Below are positions 186-10,180 of a stretch of DNA of 11,121 bases, piece after piece. A program made the translations under genes and the position numbers. Location: assembly GCA_041694835.1 (NCBI GenBank), contig JBGFRZ010000078.1, positions 1 to 11,121 of the forward strand. The letters are read 5' to 3'. This DNA comes from Ignavibacteria bacterium (GTDB lineage: Bacteria > Elusimicrobiota > Endomicrobiia > PHAN01). Numbering within the stretch: position 1 is the stretch's first letter; every line of letters begins with the position of its first letter. A model generated the notes under the pieces. That model ran no database searches. It saw only the letters and a list, made by a program, of their open reading frames with translations, and was not told the origin of the DNA.

Positions 186-253
186 GTAAGCAAGGTTGTC
201 GGTGGAAGTAAAACACAGACGCTGCTATGCTTGATAAAGAAGCGGAAATTAAA

Positions 254-3200
254 ATGTCGTCATCAAAATTTTTTATTCTTTTATCGTTAATCTTTTCACA
301 CATTTCACTTTTTGCGGCGCCGCAAAGTGTAACCAATCTTACCGCGCTGGCCGGAAATGCTACCATAAATTTAACATGGTCGCCTAACACTGACATAAAT
401 ACTGGCGATAAATATGAAATAGAATTTTCCTCGTGGTCGGCGTCGAGTTTTACCTTTCTAACCAACATACTCCATCCCGGCAACACACATCAGGTCTTAA
501 ATCTCATAAACGGAAATACATACTTCTTCAGGGTGAGGGCATCTACCGGGGCGGGAACATTCATAGGTCCATGGAGCGATGTCCGAAGCACGGCCCCGTG
601 GGTTAATTTGGGCATCCCACAATGGTCACTCGCCGATACAAGAGCGGTTTCCACAACTACTATCAACTGGTCGTGGTTATTGGCAGCAAATGCCAGTGGT
701 TATAGAGTAATTAATTCCACTTCCGGAGAAAATTTTTCAGGCAATTTATCGGCATCTGCAACATTCTGGCAACGGACAGGACTTACTCCCAACACATCGG
801 CCGCTTTTTATATTCAGGCATTCAACGGACTGCTGACGGCTAACTCATCAGATAGAAGGATTTTTTCCTGGGCGAATCCACCGTCAAACTTCATGTCTCC
901 ACTTCAGCCGGGAACAACCATAGTCAACCTCGACTGGTCCCCTAATAACAATCCTTCGTCGGTGAGTTACTCCCTCGAGCGCTCATCTACCGATGTGTCA
1001 AACTGGCAGTTGATTGCTTCTTTCTTAACCTCAACTACGCATCAAGATCCGGGGTTGCTTGAAAAAACGACTTATCATTACAGGGTTTGGGCTATAAATT
1101 CCGACTCTATTGAAACGGATAAAGTTTCGGTGTCCACAAGAACGGGCAGTATAAATCCTCAGCCGCCGACATTGATGCTCGCCGAAAGTTGGACATTGGA
1201 CGGCGAAGTGCGTCTGACATTTACTGCACCATACGATGACTCTCCCGATGAATCTGTCAAAGGATACATTATAAAATACGCGACTTACGCATTAACCGAG
1301 CCAAACTGGTCGGCGCCCTCATCGTCGACAGCGCCTCAAAATATAACGCCCTCCGCACCGGGAACCGGACAGACGCATGTCATAACAGGACTTTATCCCG
1401 GAACGACTTTTTTCTTCGCGATGAAGTCAGTTGATGAGGTGGAAAATGAGTCGGGCATCTCCGTGGTGCAATCCACCGTAGCCAGAGACAATCTTCCAAG
1501 TTTACCGACGAACATATCGGCTTTGGCCATTTCTGAAACAGGCATTACGATTTCGTGGACGCTTCCGGCATTTTTGGGTTTTGACGACCGCAGCAGATAT
1601 TATGTCTACCGCGCAACTTTCCCTTTTACATTGACAACACAAGCGACTTTTTTCACATGGCAATCTCATCCCAACGCTTCCCTTACAGATTCTTCTATCG
1701 ATAATCCATTAAGAAGAGAAACGACATACTGGTATCGTGTCGCCTCCGAAGACCTCGGAAACGGCCCCGCCGGAAGCGGTCTTTTTTCAATTCCGCTTGG
1801 CTCAACGACGCTTTCAGAGATGGTTTCTGCACGAACACCCGATTTAACCCCGCCGCCAGCCATAACAACTTTATCTGCTCTAACTGGGAATATAGAAGGA
1901 AGAATAAATCTTTCGTGGACTTCTCCGACGGACAACTCGATAAGACTAGGTGAAGGCGCAGGCGAAAATATCACGGGCGGTCGTTTCAGAATCAGATGGA
2001 CGACAGACGCCGCTGAAATTTTCAGCACAGCGACATTCAAGGTTGAAATTCCGACAAACACTTTTCCGGGCGCGATGAACAATTATTTGATAACGGGTCT
2101 TGCAGTCGGCGATACATATTACATAAGAATATGGACGGCGGACGAATCGGGGAACTGGTCGTTGGTCTCAAACGGAGCGACGACTTGGGCACAGTGGGAT
2201 GTCACTGCGCCCGGGGCGATAACTTCGATAACTGCCTCGGCAAACTGGAGAAGAATAAATCTTTCATGGACAGCCCCGGGAGACGACGGATATTTGGGAG
2301 TGATGACAGGCAAATTTGAAATACGACTTTCGACAGTCGCCACAATAACGAATGAGACAATATGGAACGCCGTTCCGGATTTTGAACCCTACAGAATAAT
2401 TGTTTCCACATCGGGGGTTTCGCCGGGGAGCATTCGCTATTTTGTCATCACGGGACTTACCAATTCAGCGACATACTTTGTCGCCATAAAATCCGCGGAT
2501 GAAAGAGACAATTGGTCGGCAATTTCTTCAACTTCTCCGGCATCTATGCCGCTAAATTTGCCGCCCGGAAATTTTAATCTTTCATCGCCGCCTGACGGCT
2601 CGCAACTTCAGACGCTCACACCTCAACTCACGTGGGAAGCCGCCTCAGACGGCGATATACCGTTCGGGGACTCCATCAGATATAATGTTTTATATTCTAC
2701 CAGCGTCAATTTTGAAGTCGCTATAACAACTATTTCGCCGGATTTGTCGGGCGCAACATACATCGTCCCGAGCGGACATTTTCTCGAGGACAGACGATAT
2801 TTCTGGAGAGTCGTGGCAAGTGACCTCGATAATTCCACAAGGTTTTCGGCACAAACATTTTCCGCAGTAATAAATGTCATGAATTCAACACCGACGGCGC
2901 CCGTCTTGTCGTCACCACCGACAAATACAAGAATAAATACGGCAACGCCACAATTAAACTGGGTGGCTTCAACCGACAGCGATTTGCCTGACATTTTAAG
3001 TTATAGAGTCGATTATTCGCTGACGCCCGACTTTTCGGTATTTGTATCTTCACTCAATATTTCCACAACCTTCTACACAACTCCGCAACTGCTTGAAAAC
3101 ACAACATACTGGTGGCGGGTCTTTGTTAGCGATGGACAACTGACAGTTCAAAGCGGCGCTACATTTTATTTCCGTGTAAATGCCGTCGCCGAGGCACCGA

Positions 3201-5164
3201 GTTCATTTAATCTTTTAACGCCGACCGACAATGTCAGGTTCGCCACAACCACAATTAATTTCACATGGGAGACAACTACCGACCCTGACCCCGACGAAAG
3301 CGTCAGATACGATTTAATATGGTCTCAGTTCGCAACGTTCTCGACAAGCACAACAGTAAGCGGACTAACCAACACGACGGCACAAATAGTTCTTCCGCAC
3401 GATAATTCTTATTATTACTGGAAAGTGGAAGCCGTTGGAACAGACGGATTAAAACGTCCGTCCAATCAGTCGTTCCTAAAATTTTACACCGACATCGTAA
3501 AAGAACTTCCCTTGGCTTTCAATCTTATCGAGCCGGGATTTGGTGTCATCATTTCAACGACACTAAGACCTATTTTTATATGGAGTGATGCTATTGACCC
3601 TGACCCCGCCGATATTGTCCGGTATTACATTGAGATGTCACCAAACAGCGATTTTGCAGGCGCCATAGCGATACCTACGGGCAGTGATACTTTTTATCGG
3701 CCACTGTCAAATTTGTCGGATCAAACCACATACTTCTGGCGCGTCAGAGCGGCGGGACATCAAGGAAGCCCTGCCGACAATGTCGACGGCGGTTGGACAT
3801 TTTCAACAACAGGGTTTTTTGTAATCTCCATGGTCAACTATCCACCCGGCCCATTCGAACTCATCTCCCCCAATAACGGGGAAATAATAAATACGAAATC
3901 TCCGACTTTCAAATGGCAGGCCTCCGTTGACAGCGATGTCGGTTCTTCGGTGAGTTATTCAATATATATTTCGACTTCGTCCGATTTTTCAACTCTTTCT
4001 TATTCAAGCCGCAACATTACATCTACGCAAATTGCAATCGCTCAAAAACTTTTTGAAAACAAAGCCTATTTCTGGCGCATCGTAGCCAGGGACAACAGAG
4101 ATGCTTTAACCGCTTCAACGACATTTAGTTTTTTTATACCCGTATTGACAATACCCCAGAGAGTCGCCGGCATCAGAGCATATTTGAGCCCAGCGGCGAC
4201 ATCTTATACTCTGATGTGGTCGGAGACAATCTATAATGCCGACGGCTCAATCATAGATGACTTGAAGGGGTATAACATTTATAAGTCTCTGTCCATAGCA
4301 GAATTAAAAACGTCGCCATTACATATTTTTGTTGAAAAAAACACTCCTACATTTACCGATATTGTGAGCGGCAATTTTTTCTATAAGGTTCTTTCAGTTG
4401 ATACATCCGGCATAGAAAGCGAAGATTCTCTGATTACAAGAACCCTCAATCCGGAGGAAGTCGTCGTTAAGTCCCCCGACGGATTGTTGACGGCGGAAAT
4501 CCCTCCATCAACGGTAAAACAACTTCATTCTGAAAACAATCAATTCAAAAACAATTTAATATTGTTTATTTCCACTCACCCCACAGACACCGCATTGAGG
4601 CAGTTTGCCGTCGAAATCATCAAGCCAAACGGCGACAAAATCGGACGTCATACTTTTCCCGAAGCAGTCAAACTACGATTCGAAAATAAAAAACTCAAAG
4701 CATCGTCAAGAAATGTCTCCGCGCTTGGCGACAATGACGTCGGTCTATATTGGTACAACGGCATTGAGTTCATGAAAATGCCTTCTCATATAGAAAGCGG
4801 TGGCACAATTTCAAACATAGCCAACACGGGGACATACCAGATAAGGCAAGTCAAAAAAACTTCGACTCAAGACTTGATATCAATTTCTCCGCCGAAGGTC
4901 TTTACTCCCGATATAGCCCCTTATGAAAAAATCCAATTCTTCGTAGAAAATGCCGCGGGTGATAAGGTAAAAGGCGAAGTATTTGACATCAGAGGCAGAA
5001 AAATCGCCGCTCTGAAAATATTGGGCGATTCTTCAGCCACTACAGTCAATCTTGTCTGGGACGGAAAAGATGACGAAAACCGGATTGTTTCAAAAGGAAT
5101 ATACATTTATCAAATCTCTATCGGTGAAAAAATCATTAACGGCACAATAGTGGCGGCAAGATGA
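254..5164 (+). CDS. Large secreted fibronectin type III / Ig-like repeat surface protein with C-terminal FlgD_ig / T9SS type-B-like (gliding-motility-associated) sorting domain
   Basis: ORF 227-5164. The ATG at 254 gives a clean signal peptide (MSSSKFFILLSLIFSHISLFA|AP). Repeated FN3 signatures (LxW...Y...L...TxYxFRVxA; DxTxPxAITxLxA; LSWTAPGDDG) are followed by five ~100-aa Ig-like modules. The C-terminus reads PKVFTPD...VFDIRGRKI...VWDGKD...GIYIYQI...GTIVAAR. Confidence 0.85.
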   Translation: MSSSKFFILLSLIFSHISLFAAPQSVTNLTALAGNATINLTWSPNTDINTGDKYEIEFSSWSASSFTFLTNILHPGNTHQVLNLINGNTYFFRVRASTGAGTFIGPWSDVRSTAPWVNLGIPQWSLADTRAVSTTTINWSWLLAANASGYRVINSTSGENFSGNLSASATFWQRTGLTPNTSAAFYIQAFNGLLTANSSDRRIFSWANPPSNFMSPLQPGTTIVNLDWSPNNNPSSVSYSLERSSTDVSNWQLIASFLTSTTHQDPGLLEKTTYHYRVWAINSDSIETDKVSVSTRTGSINPQPPTLMLAESWTLDGEVRLTFTAPYDDSPDESVKGYIIKYATYALTEPNWSAPSSSTAPQNITPSAPGTGQTHVITGLYPGTTFFFAMKSVDEVENESGISVVQSTVARDNLPSLPTNISALAISETGITISWTLPAFLGFDDRSRYYVYRATFPFTLTTQATFFTWQSHPNASLTDSSIDNPLRRETTYWYRVASEDLGNGPAGSGLFSIPLGSTTLSEMVSARTPDLTPPPAITTLSALTGNIEGRINLSWTSPTDNSIRLGEGAGENITGGRFRIRWTTDAAEIFSTATFKVEIPTNTFPGAMNNYLITGLAVGDTYYIRIWTADESGNWSLVSNGATTWAQWDVTAPGAITSITASANWRRINLSWTAPGDDGYLGVMTGKFEIRLSTVATITNETIWNAVPDFEPYRIIVSTSGVSPGSIRYFVITGLTNSATYFVAIKSADERDNWSAISSTSPASMPLNLPPGNFNLSSPPDGSQLQTLTPQLTWEAASDGDIPFGDSIRYNVLYSTSVNFEVAITTISPDLSGATYIVPSGHFLEDRRYFWRVVASDLDNSTRFSAQTFSAVINVMNSTPTAPVLSSPPTNTRINTATPQLNWVASTDSDLPDILSYRVDYSLTPDFSVFVSSLNISTTFYTTPQLLENTTYWWRVFVSDGQLTVQSGATFYFRVNAVAEAPSSFNLLTPTDNVRFATTTINFTWETTTDPDPDESVRYDLIWSQFATFSTSTTVSGLTNTTAQIVLPHDNSYYYWKVEAVGTDGLKRPSNQSFLKFYTDIVKELPLAFNLIEPGFGVIISTTLRPIFIWSDAIDPDPADIVRYYIEMSPNSDFAGAIAIPTGSDTFYRPLSNLSDQTTYFWRVRAAGHQGSPADNVDGGWTFSTTGFFVISMVNYPPGPFELISPNNGEIINTKSPTFKWQASVDSDVGSSVSYSIYISTSSDFSTLSYSSRNITSTQIAIAQKLFENKAYFWRIVARDNRDALTASTTFSFFIPVLTIPQRVAGIRAYLSPAATSYTLMWSETIYNADGSIIDDLKGYNIYKSLSIAELKTSPLHIFVEKNTPTFTDIVSGNFFYKVLSVDTSGIESEDSLITRTLNPEEVVVKSPDGLLTAEIPPSTVKQLHSENNQFKNNLILFISTHPTDTALRQFAVEIIKPNGDKIGRHTFPEAVKLRFENKKLKASSRNVSALGDNDVGLYWYNGIEFMKMPSHIESGGTISNIANTGTYQIRQVKKTSTQDLISISPPKVFTPDIAPYEKIQFFVENAAGDKVKGEVFDIRGRKIAALKILGDSSATTVNLVWDGKDDENRIVSKGIYIYQISIGEKIINGTIVAAR

Positions 5165-7185
5165 GAAAAACAGGCAATAGGGGACAGGGGACAGAGAACA
5201 GAGAACAGAGAACAGGGGACAGAGAACAGAAAACGGGAAGCGGGAAGCGGGAAGCGGGAAGAGTTTTAAACCCTTCACCCTTTACGCTTTCCGCTTTACG
5301 GCATTTTATTCTCTCATCTCTGACCTCTCGCCTCTCACCTCTGACCTCTCATCTCTATTTGCTATTTGTTATTTGCTATTTACTATCCCCTATCCCCTAT
5401 CCCCTATCCCCTATCCCCTACCTTTATGCTTCTTTCGACAACTTCGGCGCGGGAGCAAGAACAATCGGCATAGGCGGAGCTTATACCGCCGTCGGAGACG
5501 ACGCTTTCGGAGCTCTTTACAATCCCGCGGCCATTTCATATCTTAAAAGGGGTCAGTTGGCGGTAGAATACGGGAGTCTCCATCTCAATCTAACAGACCG
5601 CTCCAATTTATACAACGGATACATTGGCTTCGCATATCCTTTTATAAAAGAAGAAATTATAGAAACAAAAGTTGTTGAGACCGGAGAGTTGGAAGGGGGG
5701 ACGACATCTGAGACAACGACCCCGGTCGAGCAAAAAGTCACCGTTGAAACAACTATAAAAAGAACGCTGACAAGCGCCGTTATGATTGGGTATAAAACAC
5801 TCTCTTTAAGCGGGACATACAGCGAAAATTTTTATCATATTACTTACGGAAGATTTATCAATAAATTCATTGCTTTGGGTATGACGGTGAAAGCACTCCA
5901 TGACAAATTTATAATCGATGACTATCTGAGAAACTCGCCTGTTTTTAAGTACGGCGCAACGGACTCTAAAAACAACGTATCCTTCGACCTTGGCGCCGCC
6001 ATAAATCCTCTCCCAAACTTTTATATAGGTTTATCCGCCCTCAATATAAATGAGCCGGACATGGGATTTCTGAGAGAGGACCGCGTTTCGAGTGTTTACA
6101 GACTCGGCGCCGGAATGAGAAAGACCGACTCCAGATTCGCGCTTGACCTTTCATATCACAGCAGAAAAAAATATCTGGAGATTTTGGGTGGATTCGAAAG
6201 ATACTTTGGGATTTTGGGTCTCCGTGGAGGCATCGGATACGGCGAGCGGAAACACAGCAGAAACGCGCAAATATCAACAGGTGTGTCATTCAACATCAGT
6301 AAATCGATTTCGCTCGACTACGCCTTGAACTACCCGCTTACGCATCTGAAAAACACATACGGCTCTCACTGGCTCTCATTTATGTTTCAGTTTGGAGAGC
6401 GGCCTGCGGAAGACATGGAACCCGGCAGCATTGAAAGAGCATACACAACTTTGTGGGGAGAAAAACTTCAACTTGAAAGCAGGGTTTCACAACTTGAACA
6501 AGAGAAAAGAAAACTAGAAGAGGTTTTAATCGAAGAAGCAACTGCGAGAATAAGAGAAAGAATAAGAAAGACGAAGGAAGAAGCCATAACCCCGACGTCC
6601 GTCAGAATAACCGAGAAAAAAGAAATGTTTGTTTCAAAAGCGGTAACGGTAACGAGAACACACATTGTAAAAAAGGGCGACACTTTGCAGTCACTGGCTG
6701 AGAAATACTACAAAAACTCTAAACTCTGGATTGAAATATACAACGCCAATAAAGATGAGATAGGCCGAGGAGGAGCGTTGAGGGTTAATCAGGTAATAGT
6801 GATACCCCCGCTTGCAAGAGCGGTCGAACCCGCTGAAACACCGAAAGAAAAAATTGAAATTACTCCGGCGTCGCCAATAATAACACCGACGGAACCGCAG
6901 ATACAAAAGGCGGAAGAGCCAAAAATCGAACTCATTACTCCTGTCACCGAAAAAACAAAGAAAGACGAATCTAATGTTGAGGCTGCCCCACCCCCTAAAC
7001 AAGAAAAACAAAAATCGGCGGTTGTAAAACGCAAAACTCACATTGTGATGGCAGGAGAAAATTTGCGTATAATAGCCGAAAAATACTATAATAACCCGGA
7101 AAAGTGGAAAGATATACTTGACGCGAATAAAGATAAAATAATTCGCGGCCAGATAAAGCCCGGCTTGGAGTTAGTTATTCCGTAA
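5161..7185 (+). CDS. PorP/SprF-like (PorV/PorQ-related) outer-membrane beta-barrel fused to a coiled coil and two LysM domains
   Basis: ATGA overlap with the upstream stop. The barrel (~5431-6396) starts with GARTIGIGGAYTAVGDDAFGALYNPAA, contains GLSALNINEP and ends YGSHWLSFMFQFG. Coiled coil ~6430-6585. LysM1 6658-6807 (HIVKKGDTLQSLAEKYY...IYNAN...VIP). P/E/K/T-rich linker. LysM2 7036-7182 (HIVMAGENLRIIAEKYY...ILDAN...LVIP). The start is less certain because the N-terminus is repeat-encoded. Confidence 0.8.
   Translation: MRKTGNRGQGTENREQRTGDREQKTGSGKREAGRVLNPSPFTLSALRHFILSSLTSRLSPLTSHLYLLFVICYLLSPIPYPLSPIPYLYASFDNFGAGARTIGIGGAYTAVGDDAFGALYNPAAISYLKRGQLAVEYGSLHLNLTDRSNLYNGYIGFAYPFIKEEIIETKVVETGELEGGTTSETTTPVEQKVTVETTIKRTLTSAVMIGYKTLSLSGTYSENFYHITYGRFINKFIALGMTVKALHDKFIIDDYLRNSPVFKYGATDSKNNVSFDLGAAINPLPNFYIGLSALNINEPDMGFLREDRVSSVYRLGAGMRKTDSRFALDLSYHSRKKYLEILGGFERYFGILGLRGGIGYGERKHSRNAQISTGVSFNISKSISLDYALNYPLTHLKNTYGSHWLSFMFQFGERPAEDMEPGSIERAYTTLWGEKLQLESRVSQLEQEKRKLEEVLIEEATARIRERIRKTKEEAITPTSVRITEKKEMFVSKAVTVTRTHIVKKGDTLQSLAEKYYKNSKLWIEIYNANKDEIGRGGALRVNQVIVIPPLARAVEPAETPKEKIEITPASPIITPTEPQIQKAEEPKIELITPVTEKTKKDESNVEAAPPPKQEKQKSAVVKRKTHIVMAGENLRIIAEKYYNNPEKWKDILDANKDKIIRGQIKPGLELVIP
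5171..5424. repeat. Composite heptamer tandem array with purine arm 5171-5261 and pyrimidine arm 5271-5424
   Basis: 13 in-phase 7-mers (CAGGCAA, TAGGGGA, CAGGGGA x2, CAGAGAA x4, CAGAAAA, CGGGAAG x4), a 9-nt spacer, then 22 in-phase 7-mers (CCCTTYA/CGCTTTM, CTSRYCT x6, YTATTTR x4, CTATCCC x5, plus degenerate units). Confidence 0.95.
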
Positions 7186-7186
7186 A

Positions 7187-7373
7187 TAGAAGATAGTGGT
7201 TAGCAAATAGCAAATAGTGAATAACAAAAAGTAGATAGTAGATGGTAGCGAGCAGACAGTAGATAGTAGCGGGTAGATAGTAGACAGGGGGAACAACCCT
7301 CGCTACTCCCTACTACGCTGATGCTCTGCTGTTCTTATGCACTTATGCACTTATGCACTTATGCACTAGTGCT
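7187..7373. repeat. Intergenic heptamer plus octamer tandem array
   Basis: 15 in-phase degenerate 7-mers at 7187-7291 (TAGCAAA, TAGTAGA types), a complementary CTCGCTACTCCCTACTA stretch at 7299-7315, then CTTATGCA x4 (7334-7365) and CTAGTGCT. Confidence 0.9.
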
Positions 7374-7383
7374 CTGCTAAATT

Positions 7384-9291: not shown

Positions 9292-10111
9292 TATTGGTAA
9301 TACAAACATAACTTTCGGCATATTCAAAATGGAGGGCGGCAAAGCCTCAAAATCTCCGCTTCAGATGTGGAGGATGGCAACTAATTCGAACCAAACCTCC
9401 GACGAATATGGAACAAAAATGCTCGATTTCCTGCATTATGCTCTTTTAAACAAGGAAGATTTGACCGGCGTAATTGTGGCAAGCGTCGTGCCCGCTTTAA
9501 ACTCGACGATTCGAAACGCATGTTCTTCTTATCTGAAAAAATCTCCCATTATAGTAGAAAATGAAAGATTCTACGGGACAAAGTTGAAGATAAATGTTGA
9601 AAATCCGTCAGAAGTAGGTGCCGACAGGATTGTCAATTCTCTGGCTGCGATTGAATTTTTCGGCGGACCTGTTATAGTGATAGACTTCGGAACGGCGCTG
9701 ACATTCGACTGCATCAATGTCAAAAACGAGTATATCGGCGGGGTGATAATGCCAGGCCCGGCGATCAACATCAACGCTCTATCCAATAATACCGCTAAAC
9801 TCCCTCGGGTAGAGCTTAAAAAAACAAAAAAGGTGATAGGAAGAAACACTGTGGAGTGCATACAATCAGGCGTCTATTTCGGATATATCGGTTCGATTAA
9901 AAAGATGATAAAAGATATTAAAAAAGAGCTCGGCGCAAGGACAAAGGTTGTCGCCACCGGAGGGCTTGCTTCGGTTTTTGCCGAAGATTTAAAAGAGATA
10001 AAATCCATAATGCCGGAGCTCACGCTTGAAGGATTAAGAATACTCTGGAACACCGTTCTAGAACACAAGAGCACAAGAGCACAAGGCACAAGAGCACAAG
10101 TTTTGACTTAA
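9275..10111 (+). CDS. coaX: Type III pantothenate kinase
   Basis: Motifs DIGNTN, SVVP, GADRIVN, DFGTALTFD, GGVIMPG, GRNTVECIQSG, TGGLA, LTLEGL. Overlaps the upstream gene by 17 nt. Confidence 0.96.
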   Translation: MLLTIDIGNTNITFGIFKMEGGKASKSPLQMWRMATNSNQTSDEYGTKMLDFLHYALLNKEDLTGVIVASVVPALNSTIRNACSSYLKKSPIIVENERFYGTKLKINVENPSEVGADRIVNSLAAIEFFGGPVIVIDFGTALTFDCINVKNEYIGGVIMPGPAININALSNNTAKLPRVELKKTKKVIGRNTVECIQSGVYFGYIGSIKKMIKDIKKELGARTKVVATGGLASVFAEDLKEIKSIMPELTLEGLRILWNTVLEHKSTRAQGTRAQVLT

Positions 10112-10170
10112 GCACTTAAGCACTTATGCACTTATGCACTTATGCACTTATGCACTTATGCACTTGTGCA
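10062..10170. repeat. Quasi-palindromic octamer tandem array
   Basis: AGCACAAG-type x5 (10062-10100, one unit missing a base), TTTTGA, then CTTAAGCA x2, CTTATGCA x5 and CTTGTGCA (10107-10170). The reverse complement of AGCACAAG is CTTGTGCT. Confidence 0.95.
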
Positions 10171-10180
10171 CTACTATATC

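Follow-up and report, generated by a model that had tools for sequence, protein, structure and literature searches.

The open frame of a PorP/SprF-like β-barrel gene begins with a long array of seven-base repeats, which we read as probably one copy of an invasive family of hairpin-forming repeats. The family resembles the Rickettsia palindromic elements (RPEs) and would be retained wherever its copies stay in frame, as tolerated and reused repeat DNA and not as a dedicated switch. At this locus, the export signal of the barrel protein most likely comes from the repeats, judging from the peptide that they specify. The locus lies within a window of 11,121 nucleotides, the whole stretch of DNA analysed here, and the features below are on its plus strand, except for the hairpin-apex block, which has no assigned strand.

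Organization of the array and its gene

The array (5171-5422) keeps a single register from position 5171 across 36 seven-base slots. A purine-rich arm of 13 heptamers (5171..5261), encoding a charged stretch, forms the 5' side of a predicted hairpin; the linker slot AGTTTTA (5262..5268) occupies the apex, with no cargo gene between the arms; and a pyrimidine-rich arm of 22 slots (5269..5422) forms the 3' side, two of its slots, around 5297-5310, not being repeat-like. Perfect tracts are limited to CAGAGAA x3 (5192..5212), CGGGAAG x4.0 in the inner stem (5234..5261) and CTATCCC x5.4 (5383..5420), the last being the third longest perfect run among the 310 lag-7 tracts of the genome. This layout bears out the initial annotation, which had reported 13 purine-rich and 22 pyrimidine-rich 7-mers read through from an ATG at 5161, had listed the same three tracts (counting CTATCCC as five units) and had quoted a leader translation that we reproduced as given. 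The array and ATG 5161 lie in one open frame. However, there are just four stop triplets within the array, all in the two other frames, and by our own arithmetic a given frame would miss the array stops with a chance of about 0.2-0.3; the open frame alone is therefore weak evidence of coding.

The predicted 674-aa protein (5161..7185) comprises the repeat-encoded 90-aa leader, the β-barrel, a coiled-coil-like stretch and a LysM domain. The barrel was assigned through a match to PF11751 (PorP_SprF; residues 234-408, 5860..6384), which exceeds the curated cut-off (28.2 against 22.3 bits) yet is weak and confined to a single stretch. The LysM domain matches PF01476 (residues 501-549, 6661..6807), and a second LysM-like stretch was spotted by eye at the C-terminus of the protein. 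An AlphaFold model of residues 1-420 from the single sequence was uninformative (mean pLDDT 35), and the protein and two neighbours formed singleton clusters in the collection searched.

Upstream lies a gene for a 1645-aa protein with fibronectin-type-III/Ig-like repeats (227..5164), whose C-terminal tail (...NGT.VVAR*) also precedes the barrel gene in relatives (upstream DNA of L003-L008). Its TGA overlaps the ATG of the barrel gene in an ATGA (5161..5164), a probable translationally coupled start. Such overlaps are common in this genome, since 131 of the 1027 genes having a close upstream gene show one in frame. As had been proposed, ATG 5161 is the sole in-frame ATG before the barrel, the open frame containing no other in its first 600 nt. 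No Shine-Dalgarno-like motif was found at 5161. The sequence showed no terminator-like site, and two promoter-like sites against an expectation of 0.7 +/- 0.9.

A probable repeat-encoded leader

The 90 residues encoded by 5161..5430 have the features of a leader for the Sec pathway and signal peptidase I (SPase I): a positively charged n-region (10 K/R and 5 D/E in residues 1-35); a hydrophobic core, LYLLFVICYLL (residues 65-75, 5353..5385; mean Kyte-Doolittle hydropathy 2.76), specified by CTATTTG-type units; and L-Y-A (5422..5430) at the predicted -3 to -1 positions, with the Ala at -1 and the following Ser in register with orthologues bearing plain signals of 22-35 aa. Leu at -3 is atypical for an SPase I cleavage site, the core has just 11 residues, and 15 more separate it from the cleavage site. 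Sec signals usually measure 20-30 aa, which this leader exceeds, and sister leaders extend up to about 100-150 aa. The earlier proposal that the repeats supply the n- and h-regions thus fits the charged stretch, the core and the cleavage register here, but the purine arm is not an n-region in general: in the G001 orthologue, the start codon falls inside the array and most of the purine arm lies upstream of it.

Long signals of 52-55 aa are known from autotransporters, in which the extension is reported to be a conserved protein domain (PMC2805444). They share with the present leader a charged N-terminal extension before the h- and c-regions. They differ in that the extension here is repeat-derived, belongs to a leader of 90 aa in all and is not conserved in orthologues.

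A genome-wide family of quasi-palindromic arrays

The genome (1,907,665 bases; probably Endomicrobiia) contains 310 lag-7 and 87 lag-8 tracts, whereas 1 Mb of simulated order-2 Markov sequence had none of either; other lags (4, 5, 6, 9, 10, 11 and 13) yielded 0-7 tracts each, and no perfect run in the genome reaches 7 units. About half of the lag-7 tracts (152/310) were classed as intergenic or other, and the remainder lie in open frames according to a home-made gene caller. In the 128 pairs of neighbouring tracts no more than 120 nt apart, the purine-then-pyrimidine order occurs 56 times and the reverse once. Arrays share blocks: the 53-nt hairpin apex of the present one (5245..5297) is copied exactly, in the opposite orientation, in two arrays lying outside called genes (C81 and C87 in this genome, G000), and a 35-nt block recurs in another leader in a different frame. 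The best full-length look-alikes in the genome are gapped mosaics of 67-79% identity, and lengths vary widely.

The arms of the present array are reverse-complementary and nest into a single hairpin (-97.6 kcal/mol, z -4.8, 0/200 shuffles). Hence, the array as a whole is quasi-palindromic, contrary to its earlier description as strand-asymmetric. The centroid structure retains the inner stem only, and an Rfam search gave nine matches, all far under gathering scores. Native unit order folds better than unit-shuffled arms (-93.0 vs -75.8 +/- 5.3, 0/200), although cutting the arms into 7-base pieces can weaken folding whatever the order. A similar shuffle test on two-armed elements gave z < 0 for 52 of 55 and z < -2 for 27 of 55.

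Entire hairpins also lie in frame inside valS, gltX, hisF, thrC and deoB, so the repeats extend beyond dispensable contingency genes. Both valS and gltX are single-copy, with one tblastn match each in the genome, and valS has the block TLSALRHFILS in common with the present leader. Pyrimidine tracts are more hydrophobic in leaders (median hydropathy 1.12, n = 37) than inside domains (0.24, n = 38; p = 3.5 × 10−7) or elsewhere (0.84, n = 140; p = 0.015), as expected if context filters the arrays. Perfect runs are longer in translated arrays than in others (median 2.86 vs 2.57 units, p = 2 × 10−10). Thus, no selection against slippage-prone tracts can be seen, and a candidate selection that would keep perfect runs short in coding arrays was rejected on this opposite result. 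Locus-specific template switching from one arm of a hairpin to the other was likewise rejected because arms pair no better with their own partner than with a foreign one (arm-swap tests null; own partner in the better half in 22/50 and 22/53).

The genome is also rich in PF05635, the four-helix-bundle protein of 23S rRNA intervening sequences, with 15 matches compared with 0-5 across 40 relatives. Short repeat arms drawn from the array vocabulary flank these genes, once at a paralogous junction before a barrel gene (C52); at the present locus, there is no gene between the arms.

Taken together, we favour the following course of events. Arrays would grow through slippage of units and copying of blocks among arrays, building up between genes and in coding stretches tolerant of extra residues; within coding stretches, purifying selection would leave only in-frame lengths. 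Here, an array would have replaced and lengthened the signal peptide of the barrel gene. A 7-base unit encodes the same 7-residue cycle in all three frames; purine-rich codons specify charged residues and pyrimidine-rich ones hydrophobic residues; and the reverse complement of a purine-then-pyrimidine order is again purine-then-pyrimidine. It is by virtue of the genetic code, the frame-invariant 7-mers and the strand-invariant arm order that an array could work as an export signal. The arm order reads as charged-then-hydrophobic in any frame, and signal peptides would therefore absorb arrays. Translation, coupled to that of the upstream gene, would most likely start at ATG 5161, with the 90-aa leader cleaved after LYA.

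An alternative, which we consider unlikely, is that the mRNA hairpin is the maintained function, as a long stem heading a downstream gene of an operon and acting in translational coupling, ribosome pausing or as a site for a double-strand RNase, with the peptide a tolerated by-product. The strong bias in arm order, the shuffle results at this locus and among the two-armed elements, and the prediction of a long hairpin for the corresponding gene junction of G001 (z -5.5) despite differing purine-arm units are all consistent with it. However, the stem encloses the start codon in G001 and lies 3' of it here, and the same hairpins occur mid-enzyme, where control of a start site would be senseless. 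Furthermore, the leaders of orthologues P0005-P0007 and G039 lack such a repeat peptide. The folding argument is itself weakened by the effect of 7-base chopping, the null arm-swap tests and the restriction of the centroid to the inner stem.

In-frame state of the arrays

An envelope gene with a 7-base unit in its 5' coding region has what a slipped-strand frameshift switch of the opa or neuO type would need, and the initial annotation had proposed one toggling this surface protein. Its arithmetic held: in silico, gain or loss of one or two units truncates the product to 33-130 aa, while three units leave 667 or 681 aa. The dedicated switch itself appears improbable to us, for none of the arrays examined breaks a gene.

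We listed 23 barrel paralogues at E <= 1e-4, of which 19 carry a leader array. An in-frame ATG precedes all 19, against 2 of 38 in their two shifted frames, which argues that the upstream ATGs are not due to chance as a class; the control rises to 19/38 when GTG and TTG count as starts. If one third of the genes were ON, with 5% false ON, a 19/19 outcome would have a chance of about 6 × 10−9 by our arithmetic, or about 5 × 10−4 under the laxer control, these in-frame counts resting on the assembly consensus, which hides minority alleles. An orphan test found an ATG for 157 of 161 genes near arrays; the four exceptions are gltX, which has a later ATG, two genes with GTG/TTG candidates and one spurious frame. 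As this test is blind to mid-gene frameshifts, we also considered arrays across which homology to open frames of G001 extends: 52 of 55 are in frame without a stop, the other three lie at gene ends and none breaks its gene, with 14 of the 55 belonging to one giant gene and 24 further query splits without an array standing outside the count. Excision of the hairpin at the RNA level was rejected because the coding arrays kept frame in all cases examined, which excision would not require.

The orthologues have leaders of 22, 22, 35, at least 36, 38, 41 and 48 aa, whose content is plain, 8-mer-like or made of other 7-mers. None of the seven is OFF, four of them being intact by ascertainment since they are known as predicted proteins; L032, from the genome scan, was left out of this count, and the family and order are covered by two other genomes only. 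A search for close alleles gave one locus in the metagenome scan (28% identity) and five in the genome scan (25-49%), and no same-species allele. In G001 and G002, two genomes from a different genus, six diverged units align gap-free with the CTATCCC stretch. If the leader works, such repeat-derived leaders would turn over completely between genera.

By the standard of proven heptamer switches, the perfect tracts here are short. Heptamer tracts that frameshift in Haemophilus have 8-14 perfect units, and no tract here reaches 7. In neuO of E. coli K1, which likewise has a heptanucleotide tandem repeat in its 5' coding region that keeps frame only in multiples of three units, there is reportedly (PMC13001214) one pure tract of 3-53 units, most commonly 20, OFF in 42 of 64 genomes. 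The present array is a mosaic with at most 5.4 perfect units, inside the neuO range, and is one of hundreds, with no OFF case. The opa genes of Neisseria are a multi-paralogue outer-membrane family in which a portion of the signal sequence is encoded by pentamer repeats. The majority of opa genes are out of frame, with a mean of 1.7 in frame at 9-12 loci (PMC13183285), whereas here 19/19 are in frame and the repeats extend beyond the barrel family to essential single-copy aminoacyl-tRNA synthetase genes. On the other side, CTATCCC x5.4 ranks third among the perfect runs, neuO tracts start at three units, and an ON consensus is compatible with switching since a neuO ON strain was 93% ON (PMC13001214). 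A paralogous leader (C52) has three units in place of the six in G001 and G002, a frame-keeping difference. Incidental slippage at the CTATCCC tract is likely; under the favoured reading of tolerated repeat DNA, a shift by one or two units would be an ordinary loss-of-function mutation and not part of a maintained switch.

We hold it comparably improbable that the long leader is not the true N-terminus, with a start instead at TTG 5359 (5359..5361), the sole other common start codon in the leader, or at a near-cognate codon of the pyrimidine arm, a 5161 frame that is open by chance, or an uncleaved membrane anchor. Any gene whose end reads ...A TGA produces an ATGA, and the missing Shine-Dalgarno-like motif, the 0.2-0.3 chance of an open frame and the G001 start within the array are compatible with these options. 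However, the region upstream of TTG 5359 is pyrimidine-only and offers no purine-rich ribosome site, and a protein begun there would lack a charged n-region. In addition, the paralogue ATG counts argue for the upstream start, and several sister leaders open with M-R-K. Finally, mis-joining of repeat reads is hardly credible even for a metagenome-type assembly of 89 contigs and a singleton protein, since mis-joined 7-base units would break frame in two thirds of cases, none is broken among those examined, and related repeats stand at the same position in independent genomes.

Relation to known repeat families

One close likeness is to the RPEs, which a review (PMC10969869) describes as elements of about 150 bp with a conserved peptide. 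As with the RPEs, hairpin repeats are dispersed here both intergenically and, with the frame kept, in unrelated genes, among them metabolic enzymes. The present arrays differ in being variable-length mosaics of tandem 7- and 8-mers, with no fixed length of ~150 bp or conserved peptide, and in replacing signal peptides on a large scale.

Our arrays also recall the over-represented heptamer repeats of bacteria (LSSR/STRR). They reportedly include the cyanobacterial STRR, and Mrazek (2007) is cited on such repeats. Others are TAACTGA of Beggiatoaceae (PMC4679880) and GGGAATC of Xanthomonas, which forms convergent inverted pairs (PMC4692102). As here, their 7-base units are far more frequent than expected by chance and are dispersed through the genome, sometimes placed in inverted pairs or at protein ends. 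The known repeats, though, are mostly of a single unit type, short and intergenic, whereas here many unit types are nested within one long hairpin, and open frames hold about half of the tracts, which spell export signals. In the literature searched, which included few subscription papers, we found no description of signal peptides encoded by heptamer hairpins.

Implications

A bolder version of the favoured reading, to which we give little credence, would make the arrays a class of self-propagating hairpin elements, perhaps an empty form of the four-helix-bundle cassette with repeat arms. Whatever the frame or strand, their purine-then-pyrimidine geometry would write a peptide that is first charged and then hydrophobic. 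They might then act as a standing generator of export signals, overwriting signal peptides genome-wide and possibly equipping non-exported proteins, with the mRNA stem pacing translation at the start of exported proteins.

On the tolerated-repeat reading itself, the locus carries a caution: in such genomes, a non-triplet repeat in a signal peptide is insufficient to call phase variation, and gene callers and signal-peptide predictors may misplace the starts of array-bearing genes. The finding also bears on the reasons for the over-representation of heptamer repeats in bacteria. Should the leader be functional, this lineage would export dozens of envelope proteins via simple-repeat signals of up to 90-150 residues. 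This would constitute a natural test of the minimal sequence information needed for Sec targeting, and a simple path by which non-coding repeats become functional protein sequence.

The Heptamer Array and Its Gene

The array at positions 5171–5422 was confirmed as described in the initial annotation: in the register of 5171 it comprises 13 purine-rich slots, one linker and 22 pyrimidine-rich slots, with perfect tracts of CAGAGAA (×3), CGGGAAG (×4.0) and CTATCCC (×5.4). It lies in the 90-aa leader (5161–5430) of a gene coding for a 674-aa protein, which combines a weak but above cut-off match to the PorP/SprF barrel with a LysM domain. ATG 5161, the proposed start, is the sole in-frame ATG over the initial 600 nt of the open frame; it overlaps the stop of the upstream gene, which codes for a 1645-aa protein with fibronectin-III repeats. 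A point absent from that annotation is that the two arms are mutually complementary. The region is predicted to fold into a single long imperfect hairpin (z −4.8; 0/200 shuffles), with a folding energy of −93.0 kcal/mol versus −75.8 ± 5.3 for unit-shuffled and −68.3 ± 5.3 for base-shuffled arms, and the centroid structure retains its inner stem only.

Two further elements are found in the window. The first (7184–7375), which separates the barrel gene from a histidine kinase, is untranslated and features a 7-mer purine arm that contains stops in all three frames, followed by an 8-mer CTTATGCA arm. The second (10060–10172) is an 8-mer hairpin. Its purine arm is read in a type III pantothenate kinase, where it forms the C-terminal tail, and its ACTTATGC arm creates false upstream ATGs for a DUF6588 gene; the true start of the latter is probably ATG 10191, preceded by a GGAGG motif.

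A Genome-Wide Repeat Family

Across the 1.9 Mb of the genome carrying the window (G000), we found 310 tracts with a repeat period of 7 (lag-7) and 87 with a period of 8, as against 0–7 at every other lag tried; an order-2 Markov simulation of 1 Mb yielded none at lag 7 or 8. Once merged, the tracts amount to 269 elements. Among 128 neighboring tract pairs, the purine-then-pyrimidine order occurs 56 times and the opposite order once. Exact opposite-strand copies of the 53-nt block 5245–5297 occur in two arrays that do not fall within called genes, while exact copies of 5273–5316 and 5287–5321 occur in other leaders, in the identical and in a different frame, respectively. The sharing of these blocks by several loci indicates that the middle of the leader is shared repeat DNA rather than peptide design. 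Class counts here are approximate because the gene calls (1537 genes, 85% coding) come from our own hexamer-scored caller. The array is genuine, is not a product of chance and belongs to an unusual system that extends across the genome. Two contigs of this genome, C66 (2–24671) and C89, contain giant open frames of more than 8200 and 6300 codons, respectively, in which numerous short tracts of 7- and 8-mers, all in frame, lie between repeated domains.

The Leader as a Probable Export Signal

Residues 1–35 of the leader include 10 K/R and 5 D/E, and residues 65–75 form a core with a mean hydropathy of 2.76. The LYA|SF junction at its end (LYA|S in the initial annotation) matches the position in the orthologues at which a small residue followed by (A/D/S)-F/Y closes plain 22–35-aa signals; the alternative start, TTG 5359, would give a leader lacking the n-region. 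In seven orthologues (35–55% identity), the leader measures 22, 22, 35, at least 36 (contig end), 38, 41 and 48 aa; these leaders are plain other than in G001 and G002, two genomes from another genus, and in the protein P0004. In G001 and G002, the c-region is made from related heptamers: the final ~73 nt of the leader align to both without gaps, with six units and a closing unit in all three. The purine arm of the G001 orthologue lies mostly 5′ of the ATG, and the start codon is located within the hairpin predicted there (z −5.5). P0004 is the closest orthologue (55%), and its leader differs, being 8-mer-hairpin-like by eye, which points to wholesale leader replacement between relatives.

In G000, 41 genes, including a few cytoplasmic ones classed wrongly, have an array after an ATG and no further ATG within the next 120 nt. 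Among 160 reciprocal pairs with a 323-kb sample of G001 (26 pairs listed), many array leaders stand opposite short plain signals. A barrel paralogue at C62+27480 (script coordinates) has an in-frame repeat leader of ~150 residues. Many leaders of unrelated exported proteins in G000, and also in G001 and G002, terminate in a C-L-Y-A/G motif, as if the cleavage site were carried along by the repeat arm.

Arrays in Frame and the Question of a Switch

The array had been proposed to be a candidate frameshift phase-variation switch. Its arithmetic stands: gain or loss of one or two units would leave a product of 33–130 aa, and three units would leave it intact. Also in favor of a switch, the 5.4-unit CTATCCC run ranks third longest among the 310 tracts, perfect runs are longer in translated arrays than in others (p = 2 × 10−10), the shortest tracts of the phase-variable gene neuO have three units (PMC13001214), and an assembly consensus would conceal minority alleles. 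However, a switch predicts OFF copies. An iterated profile recovered 24 barrel paralogues, all but one of them at E ≤ 1e-4. A leader array is present in 19, and in all 19 it is in frame with an ATG, compared to 2/38 shifted frames (19/38 if GTG and TTG count as starts). Using 1.5 of the ~2.1 Mb of G001 as queries, with 1232 open frames giving matches, 52 of 55 homology-spanned arrays (14 of the 55 from a single giant gene) were in frame without a stop; the remaining three fall where a gene terminates or within the leader of the gene that follows, which is in frame. Whole hairpins are likewise in frame within valS, gltX, hisF, thrC and deoB, of which valS and gltX have a single tblastn match apiece in G000; the TLSALRHFILS block of the leader is also present in valS. 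Hence, with no OFF copies among the array-bearing paralogues and with arrays in frame in enzymes, a dedicated switch is unlikely. We found no same-species allele of the locus in the genome, metagenome and protein-cluster collections searched, and we expect that frameshifts occasionally occur at the CTATCCC tract and are purged by selection.

The valS frame (C49:18959–22120) spans 1053 aa versus 860 positions in the family model. It contains three or more repeat insertions, all in frame, including two whole hairpins that are almost identical to each other. The gltX frame (C6:7683–9491) has an in-frame whole hairpin of ~64 residues, and a second array directly 5′ of its start.

In its position, the array is similar to the repeats of opa and neuO, yet it lacks their OFF states and their restriction to contingency genes. 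By contrast, neuO is OFF in 42/64 genomes, and its tracts most often have 20 units (PMC13001214), gonococci have a mean of 1.7 in-frame opa genes over 9–12 loci (PMC13183285), and the frameshifting heptamer tracts of Haemophilus have 8–14 units (PMC2651432). The array behaves like the Rickettsia palindromic element, as far as the available text of PMC10969869 describes it, without its fixed length and conserved peptide. The heptamer repeats of Beggiatoaceae and Xanthomonas (PMC4679880, PMC4692102) include inverted pairs and tracts at protein ends, but, unlike the array, show no export signals in the accessible parts of these reports. In the open literature, we found no description of heptamer-hairpin-encoded signal peptides.

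Origin of the Arrays

Unit slippage combined with block copying fits the exact blocks common to different loci. Two arm-swap tests gave no sign that, at a given locus, one arm is repaired from its partner: own-arm pairing is no better than foreign (own arm in the better-pairing half in 22/50 and 22/53 cases). In a possibly biased test, 52/55 elements folded better than they did after shuffling of their units.

The studied locus may be the empty form of a four-helix-bundle (PF05635) cassette. This domain has 15 matches in G000 versus 0–5 in 40 relatives; G001 has two, with 41 lag-7 tracts in 1.5 Mb, so that the correlation with array load is one between two genomes. Of the 15 matches in G000, the 12 listed with their flanks have for the most part short repeat arms, as judged by eye; a downstream tract was detected in nine, and one is located at a paralogous junction, 5′ of a barrel gene. 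At this junction (C52:44972–45420), which reads ...VVAR, stop and then the barrel gene, the four-helix-bundle gene sits between repeat arms; the barrel leader there is closely similar to the G001 and G002 leaders of the studied gene's orthologues.

Why Signal Peptides Absorb Arrays

Each 7-mer unit specifies an identical seven-residue cycle in all three frames (e.g., CTATTTG gives LFAICYL and ACAGAGA gives TENREQR), and the purine-then-pyrimidine order is identical on either strand. It is these properties of the genetic code and of the arms that allow signal peptides to absorb arrays. The median hydrophobicity of pyrimidine tracts is 1.12 in leaders (n = 37), 0.24 inside domains (n = 38) and 0.84 elsewhere (n = 140). 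Leader tracts are thus the most hydrophobic, which suggests that the tracts are filtered by context.
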